DNA of 64,000 nt from Bacteroidota bacterium (lineage in GTDB: Bacteria > Bacteroidota > Bacteroidia > Flavobacteriales > Flavobacteriaceae): contig JANNWM010000047.1 in the NCBI GenBank assembly GCA_031408435.1, forward strand, positions 9,349 to 73,348. The letters are read 5' to 3'. Below are positions 49,740-53,029 of this stretch, piece after piece; position 1 is the first letter of the stretch; the number at the start of each line of letters is the position of its first letter. Below the pieces are notes generated by a model, which worked only from the letters and a program-made list of their open reading frames with translations, was not told the DNA's origin and did no database searches. A program made the translations under genes and the position numbers.

Positions 49740-49803
49740 TTGACTTAATTTTGTAATTGAAATGAAAATGGTGCTTTTTATTTCAATTACAAAATTAAGT
49801 CAA
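49740..49803. repeat. 24-bp perfect inverted repeat abutting the 49739 start codon
   Basis: 49740-49763 is the exact reverse complement of 49780-49803. Confidence 0.9.
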
Positions 49804-49850
49804 CTTATAAGAATTGTTTTACAGTTTTACTGTACATTTTGTTAAAGTTT
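49790..49850 (-). promoter_or_regulatory. Putative regulator box plus -7 element, copy 1
   Basis: 34-bp box at 49817-49850, 19-nt gap, TAATTTTG at 49790-49797 on the minus strand. Confidence 0.75.
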
Positions 49851-49882
49851 GATTTGTAGGTATTTTTACCCTTATTCTGGGT

Positions 49883-50557
49883 TTAAATCAAACCTCTTTT
49901 TTTGGCTTCTTTTATAATCTCGTCGTCTGTTCCCTTTTCAAGATTTAGATAAATTCTGATTTGAGTTTTTCTTTTTTGGATTGCGCTTAAAGTAAGATTT
50001 ATGTGTTCAGGCAAATTTTTAGTTTTTACACCTTCGCCAATCAATGCTAAAATTTGTCTATTTAGTTTGCCAAGAAATTTTTCTGGCAGCAACAATTCTC
50101 TCAAAACTTGTTTTACGGTTGCGCTGTAATAAATTTCGCCTTCTAAAATCATTTCGAAAGCTACTAGCAATTCTTCTGCACTAAAATCACTTTTAACAAG
50201 TAATGCGTTTGGATCTAAATTTTTAATTATCTGATACAACAACAAAACTTCGGTGTGCGAAGTCAGAATTGCAATTTTGGTATCAGGCGAATGACTTCTT
50301 AAAATTAAACCTAAATCTTCGCCGTTATTGATGTTTTTTTCAGCAAATATTGGCAAACTATAATCTAAAAAAGCCAAATCGAAATAATTTTTTTTCAATG
50401 GATGAGAAATTATTTCATAGGCATTTTCGCAATTATGTGCCGTTGTAGTTTCTATTTCTAAGCCTAAATAATTGTAATACAATATCAGTTTGTACCCATC
50501 TAACATCGACGGATGGTCGTCGACCATTAATATTTTTATTTGCTTTTTTTCTTCCAT
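49883..50557 (-). CDS. NarL/LuxR family response regulator
   Basis: ILMVDDHP, phosphoacceptor AFLD, ILTSH, LVKS, C-terminal HTH; ATG at 50557 with TATATTTG at 50566-50573. Confidence 0.92.
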   Translation of the reverse strand: MEEKKQIKILMVDDHPSMLDGYKLILYYNYLGLEIETTTAHNCENAYEIISHPLKKNYFDLAFLDYSLPIFAEKNINNGEDLGLILRSHSPDTKIAILTSHTEVLLLYQIIKNLDPNALLVKSDFSAEELLVAFEMILEGEIYYSATVKQVLRELLLPEKFLGKLNRQILALIGEGVKTKNLPEHINLTLSAIQKRKTQIRIYLNLEKGTDDEIIKEAKKRGLI

Positions 50558-50576
50558 AACTGGTACAAATATACAT

Positions 50577-52622
50577 TTATATCGGAAAAACCAAAGACAA
50601 ACAAGTTCCTTTGTCTTTTTTAGAATCAATTTTTAACATTCCAGATATTAAATCTGACCTCGATTTCATGTTTTTAAGACCAATTCCATTTTTGATATTC
50701 AAAACGTCAAAACCTTTACCGTTGTCAGAAACCGAAACAAATACTTGACCATCTGATTGATAAATTTTCAAATTTACATTTTTGGCATTGGCATATTTAT
50801 TAATATTTTGTAAACTTTCCTGAAAAATTCTATACAAATGCATTTTGGTTGTGCTTGCAATATTTTCCCAATTAATTTTGTTGTCAATATCGATTGTATA
50901 TTTCAAATTAGAAATTAAAGCTTGGTTCTGGAACAATTCTTGAATAATTATTTTAAAACTGTCTTTTTCCAAGAAAATATCTTTTGCCAAATCTCGAGAA
51001 ATGGCTTGAATTTCGTTTTCTATTCCTATTATTTTATTTATATGAACCAAGCAATTATCAATAGTTTCCTGATCGTTTCTTTTGCTTAGTACAAACAAAT
51101 TCAACCTAATCGAAGCCAATTTGCCTATTATGCCGTCGTGCAATTCTTGCGAAATTCGTTTTTTTTCAGCATTTCGACCTTCATCAATTTTCGATTGTTG
51201 GTCTAACATTAACTGATATATGGCTTCGTTTGCAATTTGTTGCTCTTTCTCGAACTCTAAAACTTTGTTTCTAGAGTGTTGCATTTTCGTGAAATACAGC
51301 AATCCAGCAAATATTAAAACCAATAAACACGAACCCAAAATAAGCCAACGTTGCGACGAAATTTTATCTTTTTCGATTTCGATTGAGTTTTTTTCGTTAA
51401 GAATTTCGTCGGTTTCAAACTCAATTCTGGCAAATTTGTTTCTGGTTGCCCGCTCGTTGTTTTGCAAACTATCGGTTAGTTTTATAAACCGACTGTTGTA
51501 AATTTCGTTGTTTTTCGGGTCAATTTTCGCCAGTAGTTCCAGCGTTTTTAACTCGTCCTCGAAAATTTTGTTTTCGTGAGCCATTATCTTGGCGTCGTTG
51601 CCAAAAACCAATGCTTTTGCAGTATCTTTTTGATATAAATAATATTCAGAAAGATTTATTTTGCTAGAAACAATACCTGGAATGTTTTTTAGCGAGTCTC
51701 GAATTTTATAAGCCTCGTTTAATTGATTTATGGCAGATATGTCTGCTAGTTTGAATTTTGAATAACCAAGATTGTTGATTAAATTAGCATATAAAAAAGG
51801 TTCAATTTTTTTTGAATTTGATATTTTTAAACCTTTTTCAAAATACGAAATTGCTTTTTTATAACTTTGGTTTTTATTGTATGCAGTTCCTATATAATTG
51901 TAGGTTTGAGATTTTAATGATAAAAATTGAGAATCATTTATTAATTTATCAGAAACTTTTAATGCTTTATTAAAATATTCTAAAGATTTATCAAAATCAT
52001 TCAAACCATCAAGAGCATTTCCTAATGTAATGTAACAATCATAAATTAATCTGTTGTTTTTTTCTTTTAATGCTTTTTTAAGAATATTGATTATTGCTAT
52101 TTCACAACCAGCAAAATCTTTTTCGAATAATAATATATTTGCTTTATAAAGTTGAATTTCGGTTAAGTCAATTTTATATTTTATTTTTTGATAAGTTTTT
52201 TCAGATTTTGTTAAATAAAAATAGGCACTATCATTTTGAAAAATATTATAATGATAATCTCCTAAATATTTTAAACTTTTCGCAATTGAAACAGAATCTT
52301 TGCTCTTTTTAGATAATTTAAATACAATTTCGGAAACATCTTTAAATTTTAAATCCTCGTATAGGTTAAAATACCTGTCGGCTAATTTAAAATAAAGAAT
52401 TCGAGTTAAAGAATCATTTCTTTTTGTTTTTAAAATACCTAAAAGTTGATTTGCCGATTCTTTTCTTAATTTATTATCTGACAATAAATCGTTTGATTCG
52501 AGAAGCAATTTATTAATTTTAGAACTATTTTCTACATTTTTTTTAATCTCGTTTTGACAACTACAAAAGATTACAATCTTTATGAATAATAAAGCAAGAA
52601 TTTTTAAATTTGATGAATTCAT
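50577..52622 (-). CDS. TPR-sensor histidine kinase (HisKA_3 and HATPase_c)
   Basis: N-terminal hydrophobic segment with FCSC, TPR-like repeats, TM helix WLILGSCLLVLIFAGLLYF, H-box ISQELHD, ESLQNI, SDNGKGF, GIGLKNM. Confidence 0.92.
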   Translation of the reverse strand: MNSSNLKILALLFIKIVIFCSCQNEIKKNVENSSKINKLLLESNDLLSDNKLRKESANQLLGILKTKRNDSLTRILYFKLADRYFNLYEDLKFKDVSEIVFKLSKKSKDSVSIAKSLKYLGDYHYNIFQNDSAYFYLTKSEKTYQKIKYKIDLTEIQLYKANILLFEKDFAGCEIAIINILKKALKEKNNRLIYDCYITLGNALDGLNDFDKSLEYFNKALKVSDKLINDSQFLSLKSQTYNYIGTAYNKNQSYKKAISYFEKGLKISNSKKIEPFLYANLINNLGYSKFKLADISAINQLNEAYKIRDSLKNIPGIVSSKINLSEYYLYQKDTAKALVFGNDAKIMAHENKIFEDELKTLELLAKIDPKNNEIYNSRFIKLTDSLQNNERATRNKFARIEFETDEILNEKNSIEIEKDKISSQRWLILGSCLLVLIFAGLLYFTKMQHSRNKVLEFEKEQQIANEAIYQLMLDQQSKIDEGRNAEKKRISQELHDGIIGKLASIRLNLFVLSKRNDQETIDNCLVHINKIIGIENEIQAISRDLAKDIFLEKDSFKIIIQELFQNQALISNLKYTIDIDNKINWENIASTTKMHLYRIFQESLQNINKYANAKNVNLKIYQSDGQVFVSVSDNGKGFDVLNIKNGIGLKNMKSRSDLISGMLKIDSKKDKGTCLSLVFPI

Positions 52623-52667
52623 GTTCAAATTTAACATTTTATTCTTTATAATTCAATTTCAAAAAAA

Positions 52668-52859
52668 TTATATATTTATACCTGGTCTGTCGTTTCTTAT
52701 TGGAGAATTTATTTCGTTTAAATTATTATTCTTATTTAATTCGATACCTGGTCTATCATTTCTAATCGGTGGTTGAATCTCACCACTTCCAACCGAACTA
52801 AAAGCAGTTGTTGACAATAATAATGCGAAAATAGCTAAAGTAGTAGATAATGTTTTCAT
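52668..52859 (-). CDS. 63-aa secreted peptide precursor with a duplicated PIRNDRPGI motif
   Basis: Signal peptide MKTLSTTLAIFALLLSTTAFS; the two repeat copies differ only at synonymous sites; own promoter upstream. Confidence 0.85.
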   Translation of the reverse strand: MKTLSTTLAIFALLLSTTAFSSVGSGEIQPPIRNDRPGIELNKNNNLNEINSPIRNDRPGINI

Positions 52860-52968
52860 AGTTTTAAGTTTTAATTTGTTAAGTTTGTTTGTTTAAGAAT
52901 TTTCTTATGTGAATAATTTTGTTTATAAATAATTGAATTTTTAAATCATTTGCTTTAAATAATTTTGA

Positions 52969-53029
52969 CAAAATTATAACCAGACCAAATTTTTATTTTA
53001 CACTTTTACTATACATTTTGTTAAAGTTT
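52969..53029 (-). promoter_or_regulatory. Putative regulator box plus -7 element, copy 2
   Basis: 34-bp box at 52996-53029 (32 of 34 identical to copy 1), 19-nt gap, TAATTTTG at 52969-52976. Confidence 0.75.

Follow-up and report, generated by a model that had tools for sequence, protein, structure and literature searches.

The subject of this study is a 34-bp sequence, referred to here as the box, that occurs twice in a 64-kb stretch of DNA from a member of the Flavobacteriaceae (contig JANNWM010000047.1; this whole stretch is called the window). One copy lies directly after the gene of a predicted NarL/LuxR-type response regulator, and the other precedes a small gene for a putative secreted peptide, which is followed by a sensor histidine kinase gene and the regulator gene. 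We put at about 0.8 the probability that the box is an operator at which the adjacent LuxR-type response regulator activates two promoters, P_mem behind copy 1 and P_pep behind copy 2. The argument is carried by the repeat itself, its conservation among Flavobacterium species, its fixed spacing from a core promoter element, the covariation of box and regulator, and the on/off transcription of the orthologous promoter in Flavobacterium columnare. The type of circuit is an ordinary one, but it is part of an undescribed signalling module that is widespread in Flavobacterium.

The two copies, at 49817-49850 (TTTTACAGTTTTACTGTACATTTTGTTAAAGTTT) and 52996-53029 (TTTTACACTTTTACTATACATTTTGTTAAAGTTT), both function in the direction of the minus strand and differ at 2 of 34 positions; direct reading of 49500-53400 thus agrees with an earlier note on this DNA, which had reported a match of 32/34 nt. 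The similarity extends over 45 nt at 87% identity (49814-49858 versus 52993-53037). A search of the whole window with up to three mismatches recovered these two copies only, and 100 shuffles gave 0 matches; the box is a real repeat, far beyond chance. With a weight matrix built from orthologous boxes, copy 1 scores 31.6 bits and copy 2 scores 18.6 bits, and there is no third box above 4 bits anywhere in the window. A partial third repeat at 50103-50128 (77% identity) lies within the regulator gene, is coding and has a weight-matrix score of nil, and was discarded as a chance match. The perfect 6-3-6 inverted repeat that the note had described in copy 1, TACAGT-AAA-ACTGTA, is present at 49820-49834. 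Comparison between species indicates that the conserved form of the palindrome is 5-5-5, TACNG-N5-CNGTA, which in copy 1 is the perfect TACAG-TAAAA-CTGTA (49820-49834, minus strand, centre 49827) and in copy 2 the imperfect TATAG-TAAAA-GTGTA (52999-53013, minus strand, centre 53006). The functional unit can be refined to a 30-nt box (49817-49846 in the predicted operator of P_mem and 52996-53025 in that of P_pep, both minus strand), predicted to lie at -61 to -32, in which an invariant TTTAACA is followed by 5 nt, the palindrome TACAG-N5-CTGTA centred near -42, and AAA.

Exactly 19 nt past each box stands the same -7 element, as had been claimed: the forward strand reads CAAAATTA at 49790-49797 (P_mem) and at 52969-52976 (P_pep), corresponding to TAATTTTG on the minus strand, and TAATTTTG fits TAnnTTTG at 6/6 specified positions in both copies. 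Mapping of transcription starts in Flavobacterium psychrophilum has placed the sigma-A element TAnnTTTG at -12 to -5 (PMC9723704). Combined with the 19-nt spacer, this position predicts transcription starts near 49785 for P_mem and near 52964 for P_pep; in both copies the palindrome is then centred at -42, within a box that extends from -61 to -32. For a test of the spacing in other genomes, boxes were chosen without reference to any -7 element, by the presence of TTTAAC[AG] and at least 4/5 palindromic pairs (n=92). A TAnnTTTG element (at least 5/6 match) was found exactly 19 nt past the box in 81/92 of these, against 1.1% of random positions. Only one box has a TTG in the -33 window (17-21 nt ahead of the -7 box); 91/92 lack it, including both window copies, from which the note had already reported it missing. 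The two elements of a sigma-A promoter of the Bacteroidetes are therefore unequally represented, the -7 TAnnTTTG being present and the -33 TTG about 19 nt upstream of it absent. As in class II promoters, whose activator sites are centred near -41.5, the site (centre at -42 relative to the predicted start) overlaps the -35/-33 region, where the upstream core element is lacking. The activator dependence proposed earlier is in keeping with this fixed arrangement of box, 19 nt and TAnnTTTG without a -33 TTG, together with the palindrome centre at -42, and the view that both promoters are class-II-like, activator-dependent sigma-A promoters in which the box replaces the -33 element is supported by these sequence features.

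The comparison set comprised 80 loci from a scan that used an alignment as query, a further 7 closer ones reached through their encoding contigs and 12 from metagenomes; a scan of genome contigs with the kinase alone yielded no close relatives, whereas the alignment did. The 12 metagenomic loci, found with the regulator as query, are distant (at most 55% identity) and none of them belongs to the Gln class described below. Orthologues of the kinase number in the hundreds in Flavobacterium, at 45-94% identity. About 100 Flavobacterium loci carry an orthologous tetratricopeptide repeat (TPR) kinase and a LuxR-type regulator, with the box in the same orientation and the same two places. In about 50 Flavobacterium loci it occupies two fixed sites on the kinase strand, one ahead of the peptide genes, which themselves precede the kinase, and one directly after the regulator stop codon. 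Almost no matches occur elsewhere in the 721 kb scanned on both strands. The general form across loci is TTTAACA-N5-TACNG-N5-CNGTA-AAA, and the consensus of the commonest class is TTTAACAAAATGTACGGAAAAACCGTAAAA. Information content peaks at TTTAACAAAAT, GG, CCGTAA and the downstream -7 element (TAATTTT), and the flanks are unconserved. Judged by these alignments, the box is a phylogenetic footprint.

That the adjacent regulator is the protein concerned is indicated by the way in which the two vary together. The recognition helix of the orthologous regulators reads S-A-I-E-K-R-K; the window regulator has Gln in place of Glu, and all four window half-sites have A:T where other species have a near-invariant G:C (ACAG/CTGT versus ACGG/CCGT). 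When only boxes directly after the regulator gene are counted, 47 boxes of the Glu class (SAIEKRK) have the form TACGG-N5-CCGTA, with G at box position 16 in 46/47 and C at position 24 in 46/47, and 4 boxes of the Gln class (SAIQKRK) have the form TACAG-N5-CTGTA. The Asp class (SAIDKRK, 5 boxes) has CAG-N5-CTG, with A16 in 4/5 and T24 in 5/5, and the Lys class (TIKKRK, 11 boxes) has TACAC-TTTTA-GTGTA, with A16 in 10/11, C17 in 11/11, G23 in 10/11 and T24 in 10/11. The core of the Lys-class half-site is thus ACAC/GTGT, and the overall architecture, including the 19-nt spacer, is kept. The Gln class consists of the window and loci L081, L083 and L096, and with both boxes of each locus counted it has A/T at positions 16/24 in 16/16 half-sites; copy 2 of the window, with A and T at these positions, is in this respect like every box beside a Gln-type regulator. 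The link was examined in closer relatives. L083 and L096, which are Gln-type and have kinases about 70% identical to that of the window, have TACAG...CTGTA or CTGGA, and L082 and L097, which are Glu-type and have regulators 80% identical to that of the window, have GCGG...CCGT; the Gln-type regulator of L083 is 73% identical to the window's, and its box has CTGT. L099 has two systems 5 kb apart (137-1323 and 5565-6740), in each of which the box after the regulator is of that regulator's own type, Lys in one and Glu in the other; as far as can be read from these loci, paralogous systems in one genome keep their own regulator-box pairs. This covariation of half-site and helix residue, which is our main argument, makes it likely that the adjacent regulator, and not another protein, reads the palindrome, and it lends support to the local regulator named in the earlier note, across four classes and also within side-by-side paralogues.

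The covarying residue aligns with S183 of RcsB in recognition helix alpha-9, between K180 and S184, and by our own residue count presumably corresponds to K188 of NarL; by this alignment it is predicted to face the DNA. In crystal structures of RcsB with DNA, K180 and S184 contact bases (PMC5829831). The element TTTAAC(A/G) at box positions 1-7 (49840-49846 and 53019-53025 in the window, minus strand) is invariant in all four classes while the palindrome changes, which makes it probable that the class-determining helix residue is not what reads it; at -61 to -55, it might be a contact for the alpha subunit of RNA polymerase or for a further protomer. A mixed arrangement was seen at L020 (positions 610 and 3753), where the box ahead of the peptide gene is of Glu type and those parts further on, the regulator and the downstream box, are of Lys type, a hint of cross-wiring with the Glu-type system (L001) that shares its genome bin.

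Since the sequence of the window organism was matched in DNA metagenomes only and in no RNA run searched, evidence on expression was taken from F. columnare (locus L025), in which an upstream-type box at 2277-2306 stands ahead of the genes for two peptides, the kinase and the regulator. The depths came from three runs of stranded RNA-seq (X29-X31) made in a single study. Sense depth over the peptide genes was 1,100-5,600 in X30 and 0.2-1 in X29 and X31, a difference of more than 1,000-fold, and the kinase mRNA was 3-4-fold up in X30; the main induced product in this species is thus the small secreted peptide. Sense coverage was absent over 2290-2344 and started at 2345-2351, which is 12-18 nt past the -7 element and 7-13 nt past the predicted start, at a resolution of 5 nt. 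Random-primed libraries usually lose 5' ends, and this loss would account for the lag of 7-13 nt. In an independent older run the contigs break off at 2319 and resume at 2347. The RNA 5' ends of F. columnare accordingly lie just downstream of the -7 element, a location consistent with the predicted start, and a strong switch-like promoter is situated between the box and about 2345, neither inside nor upstream of the box. Three further observations were made on this species. The peptide genes are among the deepest contigs in other F. columnare studies (runs X12, X13, X16 and X17). Within 2345-2914 of L025, RNA 3' ends cluster at about 2908-2914, ahead of the kinase gene. At position 5196 of L025, in the regulator gene, about 80% of RNA reads have an extra C, from which it appears that the truncated regulator of 163 aa in the F. 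columnare assembly is probably an assembly error or a strain-specific frameshift.

Our working model is as follows. The histidine kinase with its TPR domain would phosphorylate the regulator, and a dimer of the regulator would bind the palindrome, with residue 194 of each recognition helix reading the third base pair of a half-site. The bound dimer would then recruit RNA polymerase from the class II position. From box 2, P_pep would drive the gene of the small secreted peptide and, in the window, probably also those of the kinase and the regulator, giving positive feedback, and from box 1, P_mem would drive the gene of a 116-aa membrane protein. In this model the binding of the regulator to the box, its need for phosphorylation and the nature of the signal are inferred.

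The genes of the module are all on the minus strand and follow one another, in the direction of transcription, as box 2, peptide open reading frame (ORF), kinase, regulator, box 1 and 116-aa ORF, with rnpA, an S41 C-terminal protease gene and an OmpA-family gene beyond. The peptide ORF (52668-52859) encodes a precursor of 63 aa that has a signal peptide and contains the repeat EI(Q/N)(P/S)PIRNDRPGI (for example EIQPPIRNDRPGI) twice. The kinase gene (50577-52637; 686 aa) begins 30 nt after it. No terminator was detected between the peptide and kinase genes of the window; an inverted repeat at 52583-52655 was tried in that role and dropped as not significant (z = -1.7). The kinase consists of an N-terminal signal/lipobox, a TPR region at about 28-431, a transmembrane helix at 432-450, and HisKA_3 and HATPase domains, and the position of the TPR region between the N-terminal signal/lipobox and the transmembrane helix implies that it is extracytoplasmic. 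In Pfam, HisKA_3 (PF07730) scored 23.1 bits, just under the cut-off of 24, and HATPase_c 41 bits. HisKA_3 is annotated in most of the orthologues, and the region concerned aligns in the window kinase to UhpB, NarX, NarQ and LiaS of NCBIfam; the regulator is therefore accompanied by a kinase of the HisKA_3 class, as is characteristic of the NarL/FixJ family. The regulator gene (49883-50557; 224 aa, recognition helix LSAIQKRK with Gln194) begins about 20 nt after the kinase gene. Its receiver domain (PF00072) scored 32.9 bits against a cut-off of 30.2, and in the alignment with RcsB its DD, D56, T87 and K109 pair with MVDDHP, FLDYSLP, ILTSH and LVKSD, so that the receiver looks functional in sequence. 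Box 1 starts 33 nt past the regulator stop codon. The predicted target of P_mem (49389-49739) is a protein of 116 aa with two transmembrane helices, which is named 'hypothetical' in the source record and, in the majority of Glu- and Gln-type loci, is conserved behind the second box. Searches of Pfam and NCBIfam gave a family match for neither the 63-aa peptide nor the 116-aa protein, and with the same two databases no transporter or AgrB-like gene was found in the neighbourhood of the module.

The palindrome might be used by a repressor, either the local regulator in that capacity or some unlinked regulator, with the promoters being switched on by release of the protein. We regard this as unlikely. 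It is true that the 3' end of the box adjoins the -33 region, where a bound protein could occlude RNA polymerase, that the F. columnare promoter is off by default, and that a conserved palindrome covers the -7 element and the start of P_pep. A centre at -42 combined with the lack of a -33 element in 91/92 promoters is, however, a signature of activation, and a promoter without that element would need no repression there; for an unlinked regulator, the obstacle is that the box covaries with the recognition helix of the adjacent one, even in side-by-side paralogues.

Two other explanations dispense with an operator altogether. It is very improbable that the box is itself a promoter, with TTAACA-N18-TAAAAT acting as sigma-70-like -35 and -10 elements, or the site of an alternative sigma factor. 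Such a role would leave the exact 19-nt distance in 81/92 boxes unexplained, and a sigma-factor site would not covary with the regulator, as the central palindrome does; this has to be set against a score of 10/12 for TTAACA-18-TAAAAT of box 2 in a scan with the sigma-70 consensus, and against the fact that TTAACA and GTAAAA are parts of the box that are invariant in all classes. Flavobacterial sigma-A uses TAnnTTTG at -12 to -5 (PMC9723704), and the sigma-70-like promoter was rejected because the 5' ends of F. columnare RNA lie about 40 nt downstream of the box, sense RNA being absent over that distance and starting only after a TAnnTTT element. Least credible of all is a structural or selfish element without a regulatory role, such as a terminator, a small hairpin formed in RNA or DNA, or what is left of a mobile repeat. 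The inverted repeat of copy 1 is perfect and falls within the regulator gene's 3' untranslated region, and a symmetric change from G:C to A:T would keep a hairpin too, but the box folds no more stably than shuffled sequence (z = -1.3 and -0.2), on which ground an RNA hairpin in the box was rejected. The left half-site is degenerate in most species (TGAGG, TGCGG), so that a stem is not conserved, and the upstream copy is without sense transcription in F. columnare. A selfish element would also be at variance with the finding of only two copies in the 64 kb, always in one orientation and at two syntenic positions.

Several observations nevertheless weigh against an operator read by the adjacent regulator. 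The palindrome of copy 2 is a poor one, with 3/5 pairs only. In the window regulator Pfam did not report a GerE domain at E <= 0.01, and the assignment of its helix-turn-helix depends on weak full-length alignments that reach the C terminus, namely to RcsB residues 4-196 (E = 0.0015) and to MctR, UvrY and NarL of NCBIfam, all below cut-offs; among the orthologues, the C-terminal pattern is LuxR-like (LDxxNRQIIxLLxxGxKTKxxxxxLNxSxSAxEKRK). The RcsB residue that aligns with the covarying position contacts a phosphate and not a base (PMC5829831). The Gln and Asp classes are each drawn from few lineages, binding of the regulator to the palindrome does not account for the invariant TTTAACA, and a further regulator is suggested by the conserved palindrome that covers the -7 element and start of P_pep. 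The on/off difference in F. columnare is not tied to the adjacent regulator, and the regulator mRNA is flat across the three runs (about 175, 172 and 140). Of the positive feedback proposed in the note, then, the strong rise of the peptide genes and the 3-4-fold rise of the kinase agree with the F. columnare data, and a rise of the regulator does not.

The second palindrome, TAATTTTG-A-CAAAATTA at 52960-52976, lies across the -7 element and predicted start of P_pep and is found at this promoter only. Upstream-type copies elsewhere (L002-L022 and others) keep it as TTATAATTTTGnnAAAATTATAA, and Lys-class loci have a different conserved sequence at this position. Its role may be that of a second operator, used by another regulator, or of a divergent -7 element. 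At P_mem there is, on the minus strand, a long hairpin (49740-49803) with 29-nt arms that are 97% complementary (-29.4 kcal/mol, z = -10.1), which takes in the -7 element and stops 1 nt short of the AUG of the 116-aa ORF. Only read-through RNA from the regulator gene can fold in this way, RNA from the predicted start folding at only -4.3 kcal/mol, and the hairpin may end such read-through or block its translation. The hairpin is partly kept in L081, a relative with 94% identity, and shorter hairpins occur in the 5' leaders of L001, L029 and L082.

Peptide genes are found at the orthologous position in nearly all loci. The peptides behind the upstream box in these other loci are 50-90 aa long and have a signal-peptide or lipoprotein leader, a variable middle and a conserved proline-rich C-terminal motif, of which DIDPPIPAPKPM, IDPIVMPKKP and IDPTKPIPKP are examples and IDPPIPxPKP approximates the general form. 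Often there are 2-4 of these genes in tandem, but in the window clade one peptide contains the motif twice. Tandem or small peptide genes were noted in L006 (3072-3825), L035 (2977-3915), L014, L023 and L025. In the source records, the names of those peptides and membrane proteins that were checked are 'hypothetical' or 'lipoprotein'. A loop of peptide autoinduction is suggested by the combination of exported peptides, an autoinduced promoter and a kinase with an extracytoplasmic TPR domain, and we tentatively propose, as a possibility that we regard as less likely than not, that the peptides are sensed by the TPR ectodomain of the kinase and that the regulator switches on the peptide genes and a small regulon of secreted and membrane proteins, in the manner of bistable peptide autoinduction. 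The signalling pro-peptides so proposed may be exported by the Sec/lipoprotein route and carry the C-terminal motif (D/E)-I-(D/E)-P-(P/I)...(K/R)-P. The operator-regulator classes, of which there are at least four (Glu, Gln, Asp and Lys) and which appear orthogonal, would insulate coexisting paralogous systems from one another.

It is instructive to compare this module with known systems. At the lux box of luxI and at the tra box, a dimer of LuxR or TraR on a palindrome at about -42 replaces a poor -35 element in the class II manner, and the operon encodes the signal-producing gene. The helix-turn-helix of LuxR type (predicted here), the palindrome at about -42 and the proposed positive feedback are shared with these systems. 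The differences are that a phosphorylated two-component regulator, as we infer it to be, takes the place of a ligand-binding LuxR protein, that the operator is a 15-bp 5-5-5 palindrome with an upstream TTTAACA, that the core promoter is TAnnTTTG and that the putative signal is a ribosomally made peptide. With NarL and RcsB the module shares a receiver joined to a predicted LuxR-type helix-turn-helix, a HisKA_3 kinase partner and, by alignment, the placing of the covarying residue at DNA-facing positions of the helix. The half-sites of the NarL heptamer pairs (7-2-7) begin with TAC and end with GTA, as do those of the box. At about 20-25% identity, with NCBIfam equivalog scores far under the cut-offs, another operator and a periplasmic TPR sensor, the likeness does not imply orthology.

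The arrangement of a secreted precursor gene beside a kinase and a regulator, with boxes at a fixed distance at its own and at neighbouring operons and with switch-like induction, is reminiscent of the three-component peptide-pheromone systems of Firmicutes (Agr, ComCDE/BlpRH and the plantaricin regulators Pln). A small secreted precursor gene does lie beside the kinase and regulator genes, in the form of the 63-aa ORF behind box 2, and its counterparts are strongly induced in F. columnare. In contrast to those systems, the regulator is of LuxR type and not LytTR, the sensor has a TPR ectodomain and a single transmembrane helix and is not polytopic, and the peptide, which is only a putative signal, has an ordinary Sec or lipoprotein signal peptide with no dedicated processing transporter. 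The RRNPP systems (Rap, NprR, PlcR, PrgX, Rgg and AimR) combine a TPR sensor with a small Sec-exported pro-peptide that is encoded next to it and is conserved in its C-terminal part. Their receptors, however, are cytoplasmic and regulate directly after import of the peptide, whereas the TPR domain here is predicted to be extracytoplasmic and is fused to a kinase, in a Gram-negative phylum; the window kinase is thus not a cytoplasmic TPR receptor that acts as output regulator. Within the Bacteroidota, FimS/FimR of Porphyromonas gingivalis is likewise a two-component system with a periplasmic TPR kinase, and the NCBIfam model of FimS weakly matched residues 129-460 of the window kinase (E = 1.4e-7; 30 bits, the cut-off being 600). 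FimR is a regulator of another class, and to our knowledge neither a peptide gene nor a comparable box is associated with FimS/FimR.

We know of few activator-dependent promoters or response-regulator operators that have been defined in the Flavobacteria, and literature searches returned no description of this system, its peptides or its box. The operator offers a clear consensus, a fixed geometry and what appears to be a natural specificity code, in which one helix residue is matched to one base pair per half-site. Carriers of the module are numerous among the freshwater species of Flavobacterium, and one of them is the fish pathogen F. columnare; cultivable carriers are this species, F. swingsii and F. 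terrae. Should the peptides prove to be the signal, the module would represent a quorum-sensing-like, peptide-based form of cell-cell signalling in the Bacteroidota, a Gram-negative phylum with none established. It would likewise furnish a natural example of a re-coded LuxR-type DNA specificity and, possibly, an inducible promoter system for a phylum with few such tools.

Boxes are not confined to peptide and membrane protein genes in all clades. In some, extra boxes precede genes for variable secreted proteins with a common signal peptide (MKKLLFGLIATVMFGFVGNAQ) or for proteins of about 148 aa with a motif like DIRGRxCxGGSGLC, sometimes followed by those for tiny membrane proteins. Loci with such extra targets are L048 (6836-8784), L051 (6746-8940), L052, L053, L057-L059, L073, L046 and L090, and Pfam and NCBIfam contain no family for these regulon proteins of other clades. 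In the window clade the whole module lies between a divergent metallophosphoesterase/DUF6646 gene pair (53152-54493) and the rnpA, S41 protease and OmpA genes (46179-49220). The neighbours are different in other clades (L082 and L083), which indicates that the module moves as a unit.

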